The translations under genes were made by a program, and so were the position numbers. The notes under the pieces were generated by a model. The model searched no databases and was not told the DNA's origin. It saw only the letters and a program-made list of their open reading frames with translations. 64,000 nt of DNA from an uncultured beta proteobacterium (GTDB taxonomy: Bacteria > Pseudomonadota > Gammaproteobacteria > Burkholderiales > Burkholderiaceae_B): contig CAIJKV010000189.1 in assembly GCA_903821335.1 (NCBI GenBank), positions 2,612 through 66,611 on the forward strand. The letters are read 5' to 3'. Shown piece by piece: positions 52,889-62,352 of the stretch (positions are counted from its first letter, which is position 1; every line of letters begins with the position of its first letter).

Positions 52889-53947
52889 TTAGGCCGTCAG
52901 CACCGCACGTCCGGTGACCTTGCCCTCGCGCAGTGACATCAGGACGCGGTCGGCATCTGCCAGCGGATGCTTGGTCACCTGAATGGGCTTGATCTTGCCG
53001 TCGAGCACCAGCTGCATGAGTTCGCGCATTTCGGCGAGTGAGCCGGTGTAGCTGCCAATGATGCTGAGCGCTTTCATTGGAATGAAGGCAATCGGCCAGG
53101 GTGCGGCACCGCCGAACAACCCGACGATGACCAGCTTGCCGCCTTTGATCAGGCAGTCAAAGGCAATGCTGGTCGTGGAGGGCGCACCGACCAAATCGAT
53201 GACAGCATGTACGGCCTTGCCGCCATTTGCCTTGATGATCTGCTGGGCGGCATCTGCCGCTGCACCATCCACCACTGCCATGGCACCTGCATCCAGTGCT
53301 GCCTGGCGCTTGACGGGATCGATATCGACCACGATTGCGCCAGCACCACCCAGCGCATTGACCAGTTCCAGACACATCAAACCCAGACCCCCGGCACCCA
53401 TGATCACAACCGGGTGCTTTTGATAGGTCTTTGCGCCGACCTTGTTCAGCGCACTATAGGTCGTAATACCCGAGCACGCGTAGGGGGCGATCTGCGCAGG
53501 ATCGAGATCACCAATTTCAATCAGGTAACGTGCATCGGGCACCAGCAGGTGATCGGCGTAGCCGCCCGACTTGTACACGCCCAGGTACTGGGGAGCTGCG
53601 CAGTAGTTCTCCAGCTCGTCCAGGCAGGCCGGGCACTTGCCGCAACCAATCCATGGGTACACCAGATAGTTCAGGCCTTTGGCCACGCCCGAGGCCAGAG
53701 GACCCGTCGCCACGACGGTACCGACGGTCTCATGTCCCATGGTCAGGGGCAGGTTGATGCCACGATCTGTAAGCGACAGCGTGCGGCCGTTGCCCAGGTC
53801 GTAGCCGCCTTCCCAGATGTGAAGGTCACTGTGGCAGACGCCCGCCGCACGGACTTCCAGCAGGACCTCGCCATCCTTGGGCTCAGGCGTTGGGACGTCC
53901 CGTTGCTGCAGGGCTTGCTTGAAATTCATGACGCAATAGCATTTCAT
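52889..53947 (-). CDS. Zn-dependent alcohol dehydrogenase (6-hydroxyhexanoate dehydrogenase-like MDR)
   Basis: GVCHSDLHIWEGGYDLG, GHE, structural Zn C-C-C-C, GAGGLG, GRAVL. Confidence 0.9.
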   Translation of the reverse strand: MKCYCVMNFKQALQQRDVPTPEPKDGEVLLEVRAAGVCHSDLHIWEGGYDLGNGRTLSLTDRGINLPLTMGHETVGTVVATGPLASGVAKGLNYLVYPWIGCGKCPACLDELENYCAAPQYLGVYKSGGYADHLLVPDARYLIEIGDLDPAQIAPYACSGITTYSALNKVGAKTYQKHPVVIMGAGGLGLMCLELVNALGGAGAIVVDIDPVKRQAALDAGAMAVVDGAAADAAQQIIKANGGKAVHAVIDLVGAPSTTSIAFDCLIKGGKLVIVGLFGGAAPWPIAFIPMKALSIIGSYTGSLAEMRELMQLVLDGKIKPIQVTKHPLADADRVLMSLREGKVTGRAVLTA

Positions 53948-53967
53948 GTTCAGGTTCTCCGTTCAGA

Positions 53968-55176
53968 TCACTTCTTGACGAGGGGGCATTCACTTTTTGC
54001 AAGTGGCACAAACAATTTATCACCGGGAATCGTAGCCAGTATCTTGTAGACATCGTTGGGCGACTTGGATTCTGCGGGCGACTTCACCTGGACTGAATAC
54101 AGGTCCATGATGACGCGACCATCCTCAGGACGAACCCTTGCGTTTTTGATCAAGGGTGATTTCACTGGAAGTTCACGCATTTTCTTGTTGACCGCAACAG
54201 CCTCGAAAGTGCCGGCAGCTTTTACAGCCTCGAGGTACTGCATGGTGCCTACGTAAGAGAGCGCCTGAACCATGGAGGGTGCACGTGTGAAGCCAGTCTT
54301 GGTTTGCCAGCGCTTGGTCCATGCCCGGGTGTCATCGTCCAGGTCCCAGTAAAACGGTGTGGGGAAAGTCAGGCCCTGTGCCGAGGCCAGACCCATGCCC
54401 AGCACATCGTTGATAAACACCAGGAAGGTCAACAGACGTTGTTTACTGCCGTCCAGACCGAATTGCTGCGCTTGCTTGATCAGGTTGATCAGGTCGCCAC
54501 CTGCACTGGAAATCCCGATGACGTCGGCACCGGAGGATTGTGCCTGCAACAGGAATGATGCAAAGTCTGTGGCGCCAAGCGGGTGGCGCGCGTTGCCGAG
54601 CACCTTGCCACCTTCTTGCGTGACGAACTGGCTGGCCGTGGCTTCAAGGGACTTGCCAAAGACATAGTCGGTCGTGATGAAGTACCAGGTTTTTCCACCT
54701 TGCTTGACCGTGCTGCTGACAACCGCATTGGCCAGGGCGTAGGTATCGGGGGCCCACTGCGTGCTGATGTCGGTACACTGCTTGCCACTGAAGTCACCGG
54801 CAAAGCCGCCGCTGATAATGGCTGACCCGCCTTTCTCCTTTGCGACGTTTACGCCGGCCAGGCCGGTCGAACTGGCGCCACCGTCTACCAATGCCACCAG
54901 GTTCTGTGTGTCGAACCAGCGGCGGATCATGGTGCTGGCGATGTCCACTTTATTTTGTGTGTCACCACCAATCACTTCAATTTTCTTGCCCAGAACCGTT
55001 CCGCCAAAATCTTCGACTGCCATCTTGACAGAGGCCTCAGAGCCCAGGCCACCCAGGTCGGAGTAGATGCCGGAACGATCATTGGCCACGCCCAGCCGCA
55101 CCACGTCGGATTGCGCGACCGCCGTTGCGGCGACCAGGGTACAAGCCAGCGCTGCGGCGAGCTTTTTCAAAATCAT
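53968..55176 (-). CDS. Orphan ABC substrate-binding protein (Leu/Ile/Val-binding family)
   Basis: Signal peptide; DRSGIYSD, DTQNKVDIA, WYFITTDYVFG; clear paralog of 13772-14986. Confidence 0.9.
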   Translation of the reverse strand: MILKKLAAALACTLVAATAVAQSDVVRLGVANDRSGIYSDLGGLGSEASVKMAVEDFGGTVLGKKIEVIGGDTQNKVDIASTMIRRWFDTQNLVALVDGGASSTGLAGVNVAKEKGGSAIISGGFAGDFSGKQCTDISTQWAPDTYALANAVVSSTVKQGGKTWYFITTDYVFGKSLEATASQFVTQEGGKVLGNARHPLGATDFASFLLQAQSSGADVIGISSAGGDLINLIKQAQQFGLDGSKQRLLTFLVFINDVLGMGLASAQGLTFPTPFYWDLDDDTRAWTKRWQTKTGFTRAPSMVQALSYVGTMQYLEAVKAAGTFEAVAVNKKMRELPVKSPLIKNARVRPEDGRVIMDLYSVQVKSPAESKSPNDVYKILATIPGDKLFVPLAKSECPLVKK

Positions 55177-55337
55177 GTCTTCTCCAAGGCGATTGGTCGG
55201 GCTCCCGGTTCTACGCGAAATGCCCCTGTTGTCGTAACGGATGTGTCCGTTGGCGATAGCTTACAAAAGAATGGTCGGCTGCAGACCGTTGCGCACGGCG
55301 GATCCCTACGTATTTGCTTAACCGGGTCATTGGTTTA

Positions 55338-55373
55338 GAAAAAACCAAGGGATATCCCGCAAGGAATATCCCT
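55338..55373 (-). terminator. Intrinsic terminator after the ThDP-enzyme operon
   Basis: AGGGATAT..CC-GCAA-GG..ATATCCCT hairpin with a U-rich tail on the minus strand. Confidence 0.6.
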
Positions 55374-55443
55374 GAAAATAGCCGCTCACCATTGGTGCGC
55401 GCGCACGCATGTCACGGTTTTGTGCGTGGCACGACGCGACACG

Positions 55444-57006
55444 CTACATGACCAGTTCAATGAGCCGCGGGCCTTTTTCGCGACTGGCGATACGCAGCAT
55501 TTTTTCGAGGCCTTCAAGCGAATCGACCTGTACACCCGGGACACCGTGCCCTTTTGCAAGTGCCACAAAGTCCAGGTTTGGATTGTCCAGGTCCAGCATG
55601 CGCCGGGCGCTGTCGCCAGGTGCGGGGCCACCCATGTTGGCCAGTTCACCGCGCAGAATCCGGTAGGAACGATTGGCAAAAATCACGACCGTGATGTCAA
55701 GTTGTTCTCGGGCCATGGTCCAGAGTGACTGAATCGTGTACATGGCACTGCCGTCACCAATAAAGGCGAACACCTTGCGGTCCGGGCAAGCAATCGCTGC
55801 ACCGACTGCAGCGGGCAGCCCGAACCCGATCGAACCACCCGTAATGTCGATGCAGTCATGCGGGGCGGCCAGCGGCATGACCTTGGGAAACTGACGACCC
55901 GAGGTCACCGCTTCGTCGATCATGATGGCGTTTTCGGGCAACGTTGCCGCGATAATGAAACCGATTGTGTCTGCGGTGGCCGCGCCCGTGGGCAGCGCGT
56001 CGGGCAACAGGCCGTTGCTGACTTGCGCCGGCGGCGTGTTGTGTGCACCGACTGCGTCGCAGAGTGCGCGCAGCGTAGCGTCGATGTCATGACCAAGCGT
56101 GGCCAGTGTGTGCAGCGCGCAGTCTGGCTGCTTGATCATGCGGGGTTTGTCCGGGTAGGCAAAAAAGGCCACCGGATTGGCGCTGCCGACCAGCACCAGG
56201 TTTTTGGTGTCGCGCAGCATCGCGACGGCACCGTCCACCGGGAATGGAAGCGGCACCACGTTGACGCGTCCACGGCCACGCTCGGTGCGCGGGTTGCGGG
56301 GTTCACAAGCCAGTTTGCAGCCTGTGTGCGCGGCGATTTTGCCAGCATATTCGGTTGCCCGGGCGCGCAGGGCGGGCCCGCCGAGCAGTAAGGTGGTGGT
56401 GGCGGCCGTTGCCGGGTCAGACAGCATGCGTGCGATCGCCTGCACGGTCTCGGTCAACGGAAGTGCCGAAGTTTGCGCCGGCGCGGTGGAATATTTGCCA
56501 GGATCGGAGGGTTCCCAGGCGCAGTTGGCAGGAAGAATGAGTGTTGCAATCCGGCCCGGGGTGCTGCGCGCCTGAGAGATCGCCTCGGCGGTGTCCATCG
56601 GCGCAGCGGTCGAGGACCGTGTGGTCTTGACCCAATGTGACATCGGGCGTGCGACAGCTTCGACGTCTGAATTGAGCGGGGCATCGTTATGAATGTGATC
56701 AAGGCCGTGCTGGCCCACGATATTGACGATGCCCGAGTTTCCACGTTTGGCATTGTGCAGGTTGGCCAGACCATTGCCCAGGCCGGGTCCCAGGTGCAGC
56801 AGCGTCGCAGCAGGTTTTTCGGCCATACGGTAATAGCCATCTGCGGCACCAGTGACCACGCCTTCAAACAGGCCCAGCACACAACGCATGCCAGGGGCGC
56901 GATCAAGCGCTGACACGAAGTGCATCTCGGACGTACCCGGGTTGGCAAAACACACATCCACATTGCCTTCGAGCAACGTGTGCACCATCGCTTCTGAACC
57001 GTTCAT
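55444..57006 (-). CDS. ThDP-dependent enzyme (acetolactate synthase/benzoylformate decarboxylase superfamily)
   Basis: FANPGTSEMH, LFEGVVTGAADGY, GDGSAMY...FANRSY ThDP motif; no ilvH partner. Confidence 0.88.
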   Translation of the reverse strand: MNGSEAMVHTLLEGNVDVCFANPGTSEMHFVSALDRAPGMRCVLGLFEGVVTGAADGYYRMAEKPAATLLHLGPGLGNGLANLHNAKRGNSGIVNIVGQHGLDHIHNDAPLNSDVEAVARPMSHWVKTTRSSTAAPMDTAEAISQARSTPGRIATLILPANCAWEPSDPGKYSTAPAQTSALPLTETVQAIARMLSDPATAATTTLLLGGPALRARATEYAGKIAAHTGCKLACEPRNPRTERGRGRVNVVPLPFPVDGAVAMLRDTKNLVLVGSANPVAFFAYPDKPRMIKQPDCALHTLATLGHDIDATLRALCDAVGAHNTPPAQVSNGLLPDALPTGAATADTIGFIIAATLPENAIMIDEAVTSGRQFPKVMPLAAPHDCIDITGGSIGFGLPAAVGAAIACPDRKVFAFIGDGSAMYTIQSLWTMAREQLDITVVIFANRSYRILRGELANMGGPAPGDSARRMLDLDNPNLDFVALAKGHGVPGVQVDSLEGLEKMLRIASREKGPRLIELVM

Positions 57007-58178
57007 TACACCGCTCCTGATATGTTTTTCATTGTTTCGCGTGCGATCACTACCTGCTGGACTTCGGTCGCACCCTCGTAAATACGCAATGCCCTGATTT
57101 CACGATACAGCATTTCAACTGGATGACCGACGCGCACGCCTAGCCCACCATGCAGTTGCACGCTGCGGTCAATGATGCGTTGTGCGGCTTCGGTTGCAAA
57201 CATCTTTGCCATTGCGGCTGAGCGCGTCGTGCGCCGTCCCAGCACATCGCGTTCCCAGGCCGCCCGATAGATCAGCAACGTGGACGCATCGATCTCGGTG
57301 CTCATGTCGCCAATTGCCGCTTGTGTCAATTGCAGGTCTGCCAGCATGCCGCCAAACATGGGCCGCGTGGCGGCGCGCTTGATCGCCAAATCCAGTGCGG
57401 CTTCCGCAAAGCCAAGCGCCGCGGCGCCAACCGAGGCTCGAAATACATCCAGCGTCTGCATGGCAACTTTAAAACCCTGGCCCGGGTTGGCCAGACGCTG
57501 TGTGAGGGGGATCTCGCAATCGGTAAAGGTCAGGCTGCCGATCGGGTGGGGCGCGCAGACGTCGAATCGCTCAGAGATCGACAGGCCAGGCGTGTTGGCA
57601 TCGACCACGAAGGCGGTCACGCCATCGACCTCGTCTCGTTCCGTACGGGCAAACACGGTATAGAAATCGGCAATTCCGGCATTTGAAATCCAGGTCTTGA
57701 CGCCATTCAGGCGATAGCTGTCACCTGTGCGCGTGGCCCGCATCGTCATCGCTGCCGCATCAGAACCCGAGTCAGGCTCTGACAAGGCGAACGCGGCAAT
57801 CATTTTTCCGGAGGCGACGTGGGGAAGATATTTTTCTTTGAGAAGCTCTGACCCAAAAAGCGAGATCGGACCGCTGCCCAGGCCCTGCATCGCGAACGAA
57901 AAATCAGCGAGACCATCGTGGTAGCCGAGCGTCTGGCGCAACAGGCACAGGCTGCGCGAGTCCAGCGCGGGCAAGACGCCCCCGTATTCGGCCGGAACGG
58001 CGTAGCGTAACCAGCCGGCATCGCCCAGCGCGCGTACCAGGCGCTGGCAATGATGATCGACGTCGCCGCTGTGCACGCGGTTGGTCAGGTGTGCGCGGGC
58101 CCACGTGTGCAAATCGTCATGCAGGCAGCGATGGCCATCGTCAAAGAAAGGCAGCAGCAACGAGTCGGTATTAAACAT
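57006..58178 (-). CDS. Acyl-CoA dehydrogenase family protein
   Basis: [39 protein letters not shown] (catalytic Glu). Confidence 0.93.
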
Positions 58179-58929
58179 GTTGGCGAGACTCCATCAGGTC
58201 AAATTTCATTTGGACGTACCGGGTCGGGATTTCAAGTCGAGCGAAGTAGACGACACGGTTTTCGATGCAAGCGTAGCGACGTAACTCGGCGACCGGCGTC
58301 GACAGGGACAGATGCAGTGCTTCGGCCGAGTCTTCTCCAGCCTCGATGATGGTCAGGAGTTGGCCGGCATGTGTCAGCTGTGGTCCGTGGAATTCGTCCA
58401 GTACTGGCGCGACGGTCGAGTGCTGGTAACGCACGGGGTGCTTGGAATAAATCGCGCGGTCCAGATAGACCTCGGTGTAGCAAAAAGGTCCGGTCGAGGT
58501 GGTGTGGATGCGACGCAGGTACTGAAAATTTCCGTCAGTGCCGTATGGACAGTCCATGCCCAGCGACCGGGGCAATGACACGTCGGAATTTGATTCCATC
58601 AGCGTGGTCGTACCGAGCGCTGTCGACAGGGCGACGGTATCTGCCCAGGTTTTTGGCAGCGTCAGTTTCAGTGTTTCAGGCAACTCATCGTTGACGTAGG
58701 TGCCCGAGCCGCGCGACCTGTGGATCAACCCTTCGCGTTCCAGCAGGCCGAACGCCTGACGCACAGTCGCGCGTGAAACGCCGAGCGTATCCACCAGTGA
58801 CTCGAGCGGGGGCACTTGTTCTCCGCATGGCCAAACGCCGCGCTGGATGTTGCGTCGAAAAATCGTCGAGACCTGCAGATACAGAGGTTGCGGGCTGCGT
58901 GCGTAGAGCAGGCCAGTGGGTGCCTTCAT
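58171..58929 (-). CDS. GntR family regulator, HutC/UTRA subfamily
   Basis: [24 protein letters not shown]-terminal UTRA-like domain. Confidence 0.9.
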
Positions 58930-60521
58930 GACTGTTCGGCAAGCAAAAAATCTGCCATGTCGCGCAGTTTATGCTTTTGAATTTTGACTGCATTCGCGCT
59001 TTCGATGGCAGGAAATTCAGTCAGTACCTCGAACCTGACCGGGACCTTAAAGCCTGCCATGAGTCGCTTGCATTCGAGGGTCCAGCCGACTGGATCTGCC
59101 TGCGCACCAGGTTGCAGAATCACGAAGGCGACAGGCAAGATTTTTGTACCCTGGGTGGCGCCAACGACCTGGCAGGCGCGCACGTTGTCAAAGTTTTCGA
59201 TCGCGTGCTCAATCTCGGCAGGGTTCACCAGGAAACCCGATAAACGCATGGAGTCGCCCATGCGTGTCTGGAATACAAACTGACGGTCGCTGACTGAGTA
59301 GCCCAGATCGCCGGTCTTGAAGTAGCCATCCGCCGTCATCGCGTTGCGGGTGGCTTCGGGGTTGTCGAGGTAGCCAATCATGATGCTGGGCGACGAAATT
59401 TCTATTTCGCCGGACTCGCCATGCGCGACGACTTCGCCAGAAGCAGGGTCGCGCGCCCGCACCCGACCAGTTGGATGAATCAGGCGACCTCCGGCGAGAT
59501 ATCGCTTGCTGAGATCGCCCTGTGAAGAATTGGTCGGCTGCGCGGCCACCAGGGCCTGGAGTTCGCTCGATCCATACAGGCCGGTCAGGGGCAGGCCATT
59601 TTGCTGGGCTTTTTCAAGCAGGTTGCCGATCGCGGGCGAAAAGTTTGCAAATCCGAATAGCTGGCAGCTTTCAAAGTCGGCTGGTGATTCTGCGGCCTCG
59701 AGTAACTTGAGGATCGATTCGTTGTTGGCGTAGGTGTGTGTGACGTGATGACGACGGATTTGTTTGAGTGTGCTGGCAGTGTCGGACACGGGTTCGCAGA
59801 CGACCGTGCAGCCTGTGACCAAGCCACCCGTCAAGGTTGAAAATCCGAAAGCACCGCAAAACGGAGCGCTGGCAAATATGCGGCTATGTTCGTTGTACCC
59901 ATAGGCTTGCCGCATGACATCGCCATGCAAAATCAGGTTGTGCTGATTGTGCAGTACGAACTTTGGCAAGGAGGTTGTGCCCGAGGTGGTGAAACACAGC
60001 ACGCTGTTGTTGCCATAGGGGTCAGGTGTCGTGCAGGGCGATTGCACCAGACCTGTGTAGGCGTACACAGCATGGCCACGGGCAGCGATGGCTGTTGAGG
60101 CGGCACTGTCGGGGTCGCCAACGGTGATGAGGCCTCGCAGTCGGGACAGTACTGCTTGCGGGACGTCGCCCAGGATGTCGCCAAAGGCGATGCCTTTGAA
60201 ATCAGGCCACATGATGAGCCAGTCCGCACCGCCGCGACCCACGATGTCAGCGACCTCCTGGCTGCGAAAACGCGTGTTGACCGCAAGGACTGTGGCACCC
60301 AGGTGGGCGCAGGCGAGAAAGGACTGTACCCAGGCCAGGCAGTTCGGCAGCCAGAGCGCGACACGGTCGTTTGCCCCGACGCCCAGTGCGGCCAGGTTGC
60401 CAGCCAGCCTTCCCACTTGCTCATGGAGTTGTGCCACAGTGGTGGGGACGTTCTGGTCGATCAGTGCGAACTGGTCGCCTTGCGTGGCGGCCAATCTGGC
60501 CAGACGTTCTGCAAAGTACAT
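58926..60521 (-). CDS. AMP-forming acyl-CoA synthetase
   Basis: TTSGTTSLPK, YGSSE, KTGDLG, SGFLVNPAEIE, KIQK. Confidence 0.92.
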   Translation of the reverse strand: MYFAERLARLAATQGDQFALIDQNVPTTVAQLHEQVGRLAGNLAALGVGANDRVALWLPNCLAWVQSFLACAHLGATVLAVNTRFRSQEVADIVGRGGADWLIMWPDFKGIAFGDILGDVPQAVLSRLRGLITVGDPDSAASTAIAARGHAVYAYTGLVQSPCTTPDPYGNNSVLCFTTSGTTSLPKFVLHNQHNLILHGDVMRQAYGYNEHSRIFASAPFCGAFGFSTLTGGLVTGCTVVCEPVSDTASTLKQIRRHHVTHTYANNESILKLLEAAESPADFESCQLFGFANFSPAIGNLLEKAQQNGLPLTGLYGSSELQALVAAQPTNSSQGDLSKRYLAGGRLIHPTGRVRARDPASGEVVAHGESGEIEISSPSIMIGYLDNPEATRNAMTADGYFKTGDLGYSVSDRQFVFQTRMGDSMRLSGFLVNPAEIEHAIENFDNVRACQVVGATQGTKILPVAFVILQPGAQADPVGWTLECKRLMAGFKVPVRFEVLTEFPAIESANAVKIQKHKLRDMADFLLAEQS

Positions 60522-60575
60522 GGATAGGCCCGGGAGTGATTTTGTTGCTATAGTCTTCTGAACAAAATATTACTA

Positions 60576-60595
60576 TAGTCCTTATATACGGACTA
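60576..60595. promoter_or_regulatory. Palindromic operator candidate in the divergent promoter
   Basis: TAGTCC-TTATATAC-GGACTA; CTATAGTC also occurs twice (60548, 60573). Confidence 0.55.
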
Positions 60596-60637
60596 CTTAA
60601 TGTCAATAACAAAAACAGATTGGCTCAGGAGAAGAAA

Positions 60638-61633
60638 TTGAAAAAGCACAGGTTTTTATTCCGTGTTCTGGTCTTGGCGACAGCGTTGACCGGTGCATTG
60701 TCTCCGCTGACGCACGTCCGGGCGCAGGCGTTTCCGACTCGACCCGTCACGGTCATCGTGCCTTATCCGGCAGCCGGGGCGGCAGATATTTTTGGTCGCT
60801 CGATCGCGCAAGCTATGGAACAAACGCTCAAGCAGCCCGTGGTGGTTGAAAACAAACCGGGCGCAGGTGGAAACCTGGGGATGACCGTTGTTGCCCGCAG
60901 CAAACCCGATGGTTACACGATCGGGTTGGGCACGATCGGCACGCAGACGATCAACCAGTTTATTTATCCGGAGATGCTGTTTGATCCGGAAAAGGACTTG
61001 GTGCCCATCGCATTGGTGTCGACCACTCCCAATGTGCTGGTGGTGTCAGCCACTTCTGCCTGGAAAACGCTGCCGGATGTGATTGCTGCTGCCCGGGCGG
61101 CCAAAGATAAAAAACTGACCTATGGCACGCCTGGCGTCGGCTCTTCACCTCATCTGACAGGTGCCTACTTTGAAGCCATGGCGGGAGTCGAGTTACTGCA
61201 TGTGCCGTTCAAGGGTATATCGGCGTCGATGCCGGCGCTGATTGGTGGGCAGATCGATCTGTTGTTTGACAATTTGCCTGGGTCGATTAACCAGATCAAG
61301 GATGGTTCGCGTGTGCGGGGCATTGCGGTCACCTCGAGCCATCGCACACCGTTGGCACCCGACTTGCCGACGTTCGCTGAATCGGGTGTACCTGGGTTTG
61401 ACGTGACGGCCTGGTTTGCAATCTATGCACCACGCGGCACCCCGCAACCTGTCATGGACAAACTGATCGAGGCGGCGCGCGTGGGGTTGGCTTCTGAAAA
61501 AGTGATTCAGGCGTACGCCAAACTGGCAGCGCTGCCAGGCACGCTGTTCGGACCCGATCTGGGTGCGTTTGAACAGTCTGAACGTGTCAAGTGGGGCAAA
61601 CTTATCAAGGAACGGGGGATCAAGGCAGAATGA
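60638..61633 (+). CDS. Bug/TctC tripartite tricarboxylate transporter substrate-binding protein
   Basis: FPTRPVTVIVPYPAAG, VENKPGAGG, DGYTI, GVGSSPHL, HVPFKG, WFAIYAPRGTP. TTG start after AGGAG. Confidence 0.93.
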   Translation: MKKHRFLFRVLVLATALTGALSPLTHVRAQAFPTRPVTVIVPYPAAGAADIFGRSIAQAMEQTLKQPVVVENKPGAGGNLGMTVVARSKPDGYTIGLGTIGTQTINQFIYPEMLFDPEKDLVPIALVSTTPNVLVVSATSAWKTLPDVIAAARAAKDKKLTYGTPGVGSSPHLTGAYFEAMAGVELLHVPFKGISASMPALIGGQIDLLFDNLPGSINQIKDGSRVRGIAVTSSHRTPLAPDLPTFAESGVPGFDVTAWFAIYAPRGTPQPVMDKLIEAARVGLASEKVIQAYAKLAALPGTLFGPDLGAFEQSERVKWGKLIKERGIKAE

Positions 61634-62352
61634 AAGGCGCAACAGCATTGGTGACGGGTGGGAGTCGTGGGATCGGTCGTGCGGTCGTGGAGCGGTTGCT
61701 CACGGATGGTTACGAAGTGATCAATTTCAGTCGGTCGGCGCCTGCGCAAATGTTGCCGGGTGAAATTTTTGAATCCGTGGATCTGGGCGATGCCAGGCGC
61801 ACGCGCGAGGCGATTGGAGACTGGACGGCAAAAAAAGAGATTTTGCATCTGGTGAATAACGCCGGGATGATTCATGCGGCCAAGATCGAGGACATCACGC
61901 TTGAGCAGGTTGACGATATGGTGTCGCTCAATATGGTGGCGCCCTTGTTGTTGACACAAGGCGTGATCGGTGCGATGCGTGCGCGCAAGTTCGGACGGAT
62001 CGTGAACATTGGCAGTCGTGCGATGCTGGGCAAGTCGGGGCGCACGGTTTATGGTGGGACCAAGGCCGGGATTGTCGGGATGACGCGTACTTGGGCGCTC
62101 GAACTGGCCACGCAGGGGATTACGGTGAATGCCGTGGCGCCCGGGCCGATTGCGACGGAGTTATTTAATGCTTCCAATCCTCCGGACGCACCGCAGACCA
62201 TTAAGATTTATGAGTCGATTCCTGTTGGTCGGGTCGGGACGCCAGAGGAAGTGGCGCATGCAGTGTGCATGTTTATGGATGAGCGGGCTGGGTTTATTAC
62301 CGGTCAACTGCTTTATGTTTGCGGGGGGATGTCTGTGGGGTTGGTGGGGTAG
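61630..62352 (+). CDS. Short-chain dehydrogenase/reductase
   Basis: TGGSRGIG, NNAG, YGGTK, NAVAPGPI; ATGA overlap with the bug gene. Confidence 0.92.
   Translation: MKGATALVTGGSRGIGRAVVERLLTDGYEVINFSRSAPAQMLPGEIFESVDLGDARRTREAIGDWTAKKEILHLVNNAGMIHAAKIEDITLEQVDDMVSLNMVAPLLLTQGVIGAMRARKFGRIVNIGSRAMLGKSGRTVYGGTKAGIVGMTRTWALELATQGITVNAVAPGPIATELFNASNPPDAPQTIKIYESIPVGRVGTPEEVAHAVCMFMDERAGFITGQLLYVCGGMSVGLVG

Follow-up and report, generated by a model that had tools for sequence, protein, structure and literature searches.

A conserved catabolic gene cluster of freshwater Alcaligenaceae-type bacteria with a putative benzoylformate-decarboxylase-like enzyme

A stretch of 64,000 nucleotides from the genome of an uncultured beta proteobacterium (positions 2,612 to 66,611 of contig CAIJKV010000189.1, assembly GCA_903821335.1; here called the window) carries a cluster of eight genes which raises the question what is degraded by its products and in which order they act. 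The cluster encodes a zinc-dependent alcohol dehydrogenase (Zn-ADH), a Liv-type solute-binding protein (SBP), a thiamine diphosphate (ThDP)-dependent enzyme, an acyl-coenzyme A (CoA) dehydrogenase (ACAD), a GntR-type regulator, an acyl-CoA ligase, a Bug-type binding protein and a short-chain dehydrogenase/reductase (SDR). The initial annotation had described an uncharacterised catabolic pathway with two uptake systems; all eight genes were found at the positions given there (Table 1), and no close match to a characterised pathway appeared in NCBIfam, the PDB, the comparison of loci or the literature. The cluster is real, strongly conserved and catabolic, and it is made of known enzyme types. 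We tentatively regard it as a vertically inherited catabolic set in which a free 2-oxo acid would be decarboxylated by the ThDP enzyme, and the product, one carbon shorter, would be passed on to ligase and ACAD. The substrate, presumably imported via the Bug protein, is probably a 2-oxo or 2-hydroxy acid that is dicarboxylic or alicyclic.

The relatives of the source organism, whose genome comprises 3.99 Mb in 408 contigs and is 94.7% complete, are freshwater Alcaligenaceae-type bacteria of the genera Zwartia, Jezberella, Sheuella and Orrella. Among 61 related loci, 38 were long enough to show the genes for SDR, ligase, ACAD, ThDP enzyme and ADH together. The grouping is well beyond chance, with gene order kept in these 38 complete loci, and co-conservation of the five-gene set, a lack of which had been considered in the initial annotation, was observed throughout. 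The cluster is adjoined by recO in 37 of the complete loci; a Bug gene is present in 33 and a GntR gene in 22. Counted over all related loci, Zn-ADH is kept after the ThDP gene in 46 and the SDR gene is kept in 45. Median identities of the cluster proteins ranged from 72 to 81% among related loci, similar to the 77% obtained for the neighboring recO product, which argues for vertical inheritance under selection. Loci of the Orrella type carry a PF04199 ‘cyclase’-like gene in place of the Bug gene of the window. The cluster is a fixed feature of these abundant freshwater bacteria; hence, a dissolved organic acid that is common in lakes is the probable substrate. The SBP gene, which had been counted as a member of the set, is found in none of the 38 complete relatives. 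It is restricted to this species and the nearest sister (loci L125 and L126, 92% identical), where it was recently inserted, as a lineage-specific gene, between those for ThDP enzyme and ADH.

The ThDP enzyme matched NF005760 over positions 1–514 of 514 with 706.5 bits (cut-off 363), a family with the database name ‘acetolactate synthase large subunit’. A biosynthetic acetohydroxyacid synthase (AHAS) had been excluded in the initial annotation, rightly so: the AHAS model TIGR00118 gave 104 bits (cut-off 538), the scores stayed far under all cut-offs of the other AHAS equivalogs in NCBIfam, and Pfam returned no match to the central domain PF00205. Furthermore, ilvH lies away from the cluster, at C340:1451–1921 directly after another ThDP-enzyme open reading frame (ORF), which also argues against a biosynthetic AHAS. 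The best PDB matches were chains of benzoylformate decarboxylase (BFD) with about 150 bits over the full length; the BFD model NF005485 gave 208 bits, under its cut-off of 493, and NF005712, the model of AruI, gave 97 bits. In an alignment of 48 family members (44–100% identical), T25, S26, E27, E48, H71, F281, F282, Y284, D418 and N445 were invariant. Alignment with BFD revealed that the cofactor Glu, the equivalents of E28 and H70 and the Mg ligands are kept (E27, E48, H71, D418, N445), and that S26 and H281 of BFD are replaced by Thr and Phe. Judged by its PDB matches, the enzyme is BFD-like. The initial annotation had suggested the logic of a 2-hydroxyacyl-CoA lyase (HACL), which found no sequence support: no model of the oxalyl-CoA decarboxylase (OXC)/HACL type was among the best 25 NCBIfam matches (down to 73 bits), and no such chain among the best 60 PDB matches (down to 64 bits).

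The distribution of this ThDP family was analyzed in related genomes. Members were detected in 152 of the 301 genomes analyzed from the same GTDB family, a genome having four copies at most, versus only five of 150 other families of the class. For gene contexts, 40 neighborhoods of family members from other genera were pooled with the other loci. Gene calls in this survey were crude (ORFs were chosen by GC3), the ThDP gene was missed in 9 of 57 sequences (56 loci and the window), which were excluded from the neighborhood counts, and these counts come from related genomes that are not independent. Of the 34 loci of paralogues with 44–54% identity to the ThDP enzyme, 28 have a Bug gene at a distance of up to 6 kb, and in half of the loci (17/34) it is directly adjacent; Bug proteins 54–62% identical to that of the window directly adjoin ThDP paralogues in six loci, from six other genera. 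Paralogues of this identity range were found with an IclR regulator, GGT, a class-III aminotransferase and hydantoinase A/B; with a GntR-FCD regulator, an SDR and an MR/MLE enolase; with arginase-family enzymes; or with an Amdase-like protein and an HpcH aldolase. One homologue with 58% identity (L075) has a PEP-mutase-family neighbor. Neighbors of these enzyme types make or use 2-oxo acids, as in the AruH/AruI/GbuA pathway. Together, the Bug genes and these contexts support a general role of the family as predicted decarboxylases of imported or derived 2-oxo acids. Additionally, a conserved cluster of IclR, Bug, GGT, Bug, NF005760 ThDP enzyme and class-III aminotransferase genes, sometimes with hydantoinase/oxoprolinase A/B, was observed in four loci (L094, L095, L101, L114); it appears to be another uncharacterised pathway using the same ThDP family.

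Homologues closer to the ThDP enzyme of the window differed from these paralogues. Of 11 loci with 55–61% identity, 10 had an ACAD gene no more than 6 kb away, versus 1 of 34 paralogue loci; therefore, the link to CoA chemistry is specific to the 55–61% subgroup. Paralogues with identical active-site residues occur in clusters lacking CoA enzymes. The ACAD-linked distant loci show one or both of two forms, namely a cyclase-ligase-ACAD set, or a divergent GH88-like gene with CoA-transferase, ACAD, CoA-transferase, ligase and TetR genes. The trio of ligase, ACAD and ThDP enzyme also recurs in other arrangements at 55–61% identity (L077, L072, L011).

The ACAD has its catalytic Glu in a canonical YEG (motif RIYEGATEV). 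Its best PDB matches were 5jsc and 5idu, uncharacterised putative ACADs from Burkholderia, with 456 bits, and the closest named models include cyclohexane-1-carbonyl-CoA and prolyl-carrier-protein dehydrogenases. ACADs with 60–66% identity were present in 174 of 301 related genomes, usually away from ThDP genes; in the sampled contexts an ORF of about 780–820 amino acids is followed by enoyl-CoA hydratase, ACAD and then ligase genes. Such neighborhoods, sometimes with an SDR gene after the large ORF, were seen in L129, L132, L133, L136, L142 and L144, and they are absent from the genus of the window. In L136, the only fully annotated one, the order is PRK08255, SDR, enoyl-CoA hydratase, ACAD and a gene of the benzoate-CoA-ligase family. 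PRK08255, named ‘salicylyl-CoA 5-hydroxylase/oxidoreductase’ and matched with 1394 bits, is of the 2-aminobenzoyl-CoA monooxygenase/reductase type. The resemblance of the dehydrogenase to those of aminobenzoyl-CoA clusters, noted in the initial annotation, was thus confirmed. The chemistry of the 2-aminobenzoyl-CoA (anthranilate) pathway, of the abm type in Azoarcus evansii, has been described (PMC3534580). The cluster differs from it in having a ligase of the PRK06164 family and no crotonase, and the ThDP enzyme is not a component of that pathway. Full-length PRK08255 was not found in the source genome at its completeness of 94.7%, where only partial matches of the OYE domain were obtained (best 403 bits, cut-off 1078); hence, the anthranilate pathway was ruled out for the cluster. 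The kinship of the ACAD to those of 2-aminobenzoyl-CoA-type clusters does hint at substrates that are alicyclic or similar acyl-CoAs.

The remaining enzymes were assigned as follows. The ligase exceeded the cut-off of NF004814 (702 versus 677 bits); its PDB matches were weak (at most 110 bits), the best being mostly aryl-acid ligases. Zn-ADH contains the Cys/His motifs for catalytic and structural zinc, and a VVDID motif suggests a preference for NAD; its best PDB matches were the Sulfolobus ADH 2eer (225 bits) and the secondary ADH-A of Rhodococcus ruber. The SDR gave 241 bits with NF005753, under the cut-off of 310, and its pattern TGGSRGIG...FSRS suggests use of NADP(H). None of the eight proteins matched crotonase or thiolase families or ilvH in Pfam and NCBIfam. 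As the initial annotation had stated, enoyl-CoA hydratase and thiolase for ordinary β-oxidation are missing locally, and the cluster is not a complete β-oxidation operon.

How could these enzymes work together? In the series that we favor, the ThDP enzyme would catalyze a non-oxidative decarboxylation of BFD type, converting a free 2-oxo acid to an aldehyde one carbon shorter. The NAD-type Zn-ADH and the SDR would interconvert hydroxy and carbonyl groups near this step (e.g. 2-hydroxy to 2-oxo acid, or aldehyde to alcohol). An aldehyde dehydrogenase encoded elsewhere would oxidize the aldehyde, whereupon the ligase would activate the shortened acid and the dedicated ACAD would desaturate the acyl-CoA; housekeeping hydratase, dehydrogenase and thiolase would complete the breakdown. 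The GntR/UTRA regulator would repress both divergent units until the substrate or a CoA ester is present. Such a series requires no new chemistry, and it accounts for each half of the cluster being useful alone.

The halves are indeed separable, which fits an order with the ThDP enzyme first. In L065:8883–12699, from an Orrella-like metagenome-assembled genome, SDR, ThDP, ADH and recO genes are kept and the cyclase-ligase-ACAD genes are cleanly missing between intact flanking genes; no orthologue of the missing genes was found elsewhere in that genome. L141 has SDR, cyclase, ligase, GntR and ACAD genes with no ThDP or ADH gene nearby. In L077, an SSADH-type aldehyde dehydrogenase gene lies just upstream. 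The ‘cyclase’ of a further locus, L083, is 57% identical to that of Orrella. The two halves can thus exist alone, as the arrangements in L065, L141 and L083 indicate, and cyclase, ligase and ACAD genes together resemble a module that can be reused. L083 is a second, distant cluster of the source genome (contig C179:1–13000); it has no ThDP gene and carries genes for DctP and DctM (TRAP), ACAD, an AMP-forming ligase, a PF04199 ‘cyclase’ and TctC. L065 represents a natural ‘deletion mutant’ useful for comparison.

Two known systems resemble this series in their logic. The mandelate pathway of Pseudomonas putida (MdlB, MdlC, MdlD) shares the proposed route from hydroxy acid via 2-oxo acid to an aldehyde one carbon shorter, BFD chains are the best solved relatives of the ThDP enzyme, and the cofactor Glu, the equivalents of H70 and E28 and the Mg-binding motif are kept. 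It differs from the cluster by the sub-threshold score against the BFD model and the Phe and Thr replacements given above; moreover, the cluster lacks mandelate racemase, an FMN dehydrogenase and aldehyde dehydrogenase, and has a coupled CoA ligase and ACAD instead. The arginine transaminase pathway (AruH, AruI, GbuA) employs an AHAS-like ThDP enzyme as a catabolic 2-oxo-acid decarboxylase; AruI is a 5-guanidino-2-oxopentanoate decarboxylase. Paralogues of the window's enzyme likewise occur beside aminotransferase or arginase-family genes, but the AruI model scored low and the cluster contains neither transaminase nor arginase.

Several points weigh against the favored series. The series needs an aldehyde dehydrogenase, which is encoded nowhere in the window and only in L077 among the sampled orthologous loci. 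With its ACAD association in 10 of 11 loci, the orthologue group would also be consistent with a supply of the ThDP enzyme by CoA chemistry. A GH88-like or PF04199 ‘cyclase’-like protein is encoded in many of the distant orthologous clusters and could supply the missing hydration or hydrolysis if the CoA steps came first. L065 belongs to a metagenome-assembled genome of unknown completeness, and its deletion may be recent decay. Catalysis may differ from that of BFD because H281 is an invariant Phe and S26 is Thr, and no characterised member of NF005760 was found in the literature.

The reverse order, with CoA chemistry first and the ThDP enzyme last, had been proposed in the initial annotation. 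It still stands as a rival, which we consider rather doubtful. Ligase and ACAD would act on the imported acid, and the product would hydrolyze to a 2-oxo acid owing to an α-heteroatom or a ring, a step in which the cyclase-like or GH88-like protein would assist in relatives; this 2-oxo acid would then be decarboxylated by the ThDP enzyme, and ADH and SDR would handle the aldehyde. Translational coupling of the ligase, GntR, ACAD and ThDP genes fits this order, as does the ACAD linkage of the 55–61% homologues, and no aldehyde dehydrogenase is required before the CoA steps. Support also comes from the distant clusters in which a GH88-like gene is divergent from the ThDP gene and accompanied by two family-III CoA-transferase genes and an ACAD gene; GH88 enzymes hydrate an enol ether beside a carboxylate to give a 2-oxo acid. 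The models closest to the ACAD, for cyclohexane-1-carbonyl-CoA and prolyl-carrier-protein dehydrogenases, point in the same direction. However, the ACAD would have to act on α-substituted acyl-CoAs with subsequent hydrolysis, for which we know of no precedent. Moreover, the clade of the window has no cyclase-like or GH88-like gene in the cluster, and in L065 the genes for ThDP enzyme, SDR and ADH are kept in a genome that lacks the ligase and the ACAD altogether.

The ‘cyclases’ themselves do not help this order. Kynurenine formamidase and isatin hydrolase contain the motif HxGTHxDxPxH. The PF04199 ‘cyclases’ of about 345 amino acids read QYSTQWDxLxH instead (L009:6223–7266, L077:6087–7136, L011:2487–3527, L083:4191–5222 and L084:8406–9461), so two metal-binding His of the KynB type are missing. 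Their sole solved relative is the uncharacterised 5ibz. The idea that the ‘cyclase’ is an isatin hydrolase feeding an arylglyoxylate decarboxylase was rejected because of the missing His residues; furthermore, the ACAD would have no role on an aromatic acyl-CoA.

Another alternative, which we regard as unlikely, is that two independent modules stand side by side and serve unrelated substrates, one consisting of SDR, cyclase or Bug, ligase, GntR and ACAD, the other of Bug, ThDP enzyme and ADH. Each occurs without the other (L141 and L065), a related cyclase-ligase-ACAD trio is encoded elsewhere in the source genome with no ThDP gene, and most occurrences of the ACAD subfamily are not near a ThDP gene. 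Nevertheless, the ACAD and ThDP genes overlap by 1 nt within one operon, and the ACAD association of the orthologue group persists across several gene orders. It is equally unlikely, in our opinion, that the ACAD-linked subgroup of NF005760 performs an undescribed C–C cleavage of a 2-oxo or diketo intermediate arising from CoA-dependent oxidation of an alicyclic or α-substituted acid, where the missing hydratase or hydrolase activity would come from GH88-like proteins and from the PF04199 ‘cyclase’, which is poor in metal ligands. If true, it would represent a thiolase-independent ending to a β-oxidation-like pathway.

Cleavage of an acyloin or 1,2-diketone is less probable again. ADH and SDR would oxidize a vicinal diol or hydroxy-ketone, possibly alicyclic, the ThDP enzyme would cleave the diketone in the manner of cyclohexane-1,2-dione hydrolase (CDH) or benzaldehyde lyase (BAL), and ligase and ACAD would degrade the resulting acid. 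Two dehydrogenases and a ThDP enzyme are the logic of the cyclohexane-1,2-diol pathway. The SDR-ThDP-ADH trio survives alone in one relative, Zn-ADH resembles secondary-alcohol dehydrogenases, and H281 of BFD is missing. CDH binds FAD in its central domain; the ThDP enzyme has no central-domain match, and no CDH or BAL chain was among its best 60 PDB matches. On the contrary, the residues equivalent to H70 and E28 of BFD, which are characteristic of decarboxylases, do not vary among the 48 family members; carboxylates are the ligands of Bug proteins, and the paralogue contexts indicate 2-oxo acids. The ACAD has relatives in clusters that process alicyclic CoA esters (PMC3534580), which would suit a diketone.

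Very improbable is direct splitting of a CoA ester into formyl-CoA and an aldehyde or ketone by an HACL-like ThDP enzyme: it would fit the linkage with ligase and ACAD, a carbonyl product that ADH and SDR could handle, and the precedent of the actinobacterial 2-hydroxyisobutyryl-CoA lyase pathway, in which a CoA ligase and a ThDP enzyme remove a one-carbon unit (PMC7176365, PMC8760513), but that lyase acts on a CoA ester and, like the known HACLs, belongs to the OXC family, with which the BFD-like enzyme has no detectable relation beyond the ThDP fold, a 2-hydroxyacyl-CoA is not an ACAD product, a gene for handling formyl-CoA is missing from the cluster, and paralogues with the same active-site residues manage without CoA enzymes.

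Two further systems were compared. The cyclohexanecarboxylate pathway (AliA, AliB, BadK, BadH, BadI) shares the combination of ligase, ACAD and SDR with the cluster; models of AliA, AliB, BadH and Had gave sub-threshold matches of 110–225 bits, far below their cut-offs. Unlike that pathway, the cluster has no crotonase of the BadK/BadI type, and the ThDP enzyme has no counterpart there. In Variovorax paradoxus TBEA6, ‘IlvX’ (VPARA_05550), a ‘putative acetolactate synthase’, is encoded amid enoyl-CoA hydratase genes in a thiodipropionate cluster, which also contains a CoA-transferase and an ACAD-type gene; IlvX is induced on an organic acid substrate, and its deletion gave no phenotype (PMC6370202). 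IlvX is thus uninformative on function, and it was likened to the ThDP enzyme of the window by name only.

The cluster does not represent a novel type of biological system, but we consider it a useful target for enzyme discovery. Its value lies in the mis-named ThDP family and its Bug partners: the family is large, being present in about half of the genomes of its bacterial family, and is named ‘acetolactate synthase’ but sits in catabolic clusters. Assigning a substrate to one member would correct thousands of annotations, and it would also help to de-orphan some Bug proteins, the ligands of which are mostly unknown.

Table 1. Features of the cluster in the window
Feature	Position	Strand	Basis
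Zn-ADH, 352 aa	52889–53947	-	Pfam ADH_N + ADH_zinc_N
Liv-type SBP, 402 aa	53968–55176	-	Pfam Peripla_BP_6, 313 bits
Terminator-like hairpin	55348–55373	-	11-bp stem then T-run; consensus scan
ThDP enzyme, 520 aa	55444–57006	-	NF005760/PRK07586
ACAD, 390 aa	57006–58178	-	PF02771, PF02770 and PF00441 all match
GntR/HutC-type regulator	58171–58929	-	Pfam GntR (PF00392) 60.9 bits, UTRA (PF07702) 30 bits
AMP-forming acyl-CoA ligase, 531 aa	58926–60521	-	NF004814/PRK06164
Divergent control region, 116 nt	60522–60637	.	Between ligase and Bug
Bug/TctC protein	60620–61633	+	Pfam TctC, 211 bits
Classical SDR	61591–62352	+	Pfam adh_short

The layout of the locus agreed with the initial annotation, and an independent gene call on a relative with 92% identity gave the same result. 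Bug and SDR genes are on the plus strand, divergent from the six minus-strand genes. Start and stop codons are joined by overlaps of 4 nt (ligase/GntR), 8 nt (GntR/ACAD) and 1 nt (ACAD/ThDP). The ThDP gene is followed by a gap of 267 nt, the SBP gene, 20 nt and the Zn-ADH gene. A terminator-like hairpin located at 55373–55348 after the ThDP gene came from a consensus scan, and as many such sites are expected by chance as were found in the region; owing to this hairpin, SBP and ADH may form a unit of their own. Translation of Bug more likely starts at TTG 60638, behind AGGAG, in agreement with the call of 331 amino acids in the relative. For the SDR, ATG 61630 is the more likely start, where an ATGA overlaps the Bug stop codon and the product of 240 amino acids is close to the 241 of Orrella; with this start, the SDR gene is likely translationally coupled to the Bug gene. 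The cluster is flanked on the left by lepA-lepB-rnc-era-recO and on the right by a PAS-GGDEF gene.

The regulator belongs to the HutC subfamily of the GntR family, with an N-terminal helix-turn-helix and a C-terminal UTRA domain, and is encoded inside the operon. The ligase-GntR pair recurs in distant clusters at 43–56% identity; in genomes without a local GntR gene, no orthologue was found elsewhere. The divergent spacer contains GCTATAGT at 60547–60554 and, 25 nt from it, the palindrome ACTATAGT at 60572–60579; an inverted repeat, TAGTCC-N8-GGACTA, lies at 60576–60595. Conservation of ACTATAGT extends to 38 of 40 orthologous spacers between Bug and ligase genes. It was dropped as a candidate GntR operator since it is equally conserved in loci and genomes lacking the regulator; on account of this conservation, ACTATAGT may be a palindromic -10 element.

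The claim of two uptake systems held only in part: two binding proteins are present, but neither has membrane partners nearby. The best structural match of the SBP was PDB 3i09, with 327 bits and an unknown ligand. Neither permease nor ATPase genes were found near the SBP gene; the nearest Liv-type permease is encoded about 40 kb away. The Bug protein matched BugE (2dvz), the terephthalate-binding TBP, BugD and 7ndr best, with about 190–209 bits. A tripartite tricarboxylate transporter is not encoded at the locus, where TctC is present and the partners TctA and TctB were not found; the three TctA genes of the source genome all lie on contigs other than that of the window. Hence, both binding proteins are orphans. 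The source genome, of about 4 Mb, is heavily invested in binding-protein-dependent uptake. It encodes 128 Bug/TctC paralogues versus three TctA genes, and 60 matches to the Liv-type permease family correspond to roughly 30 ABC systems at two permease genes each.

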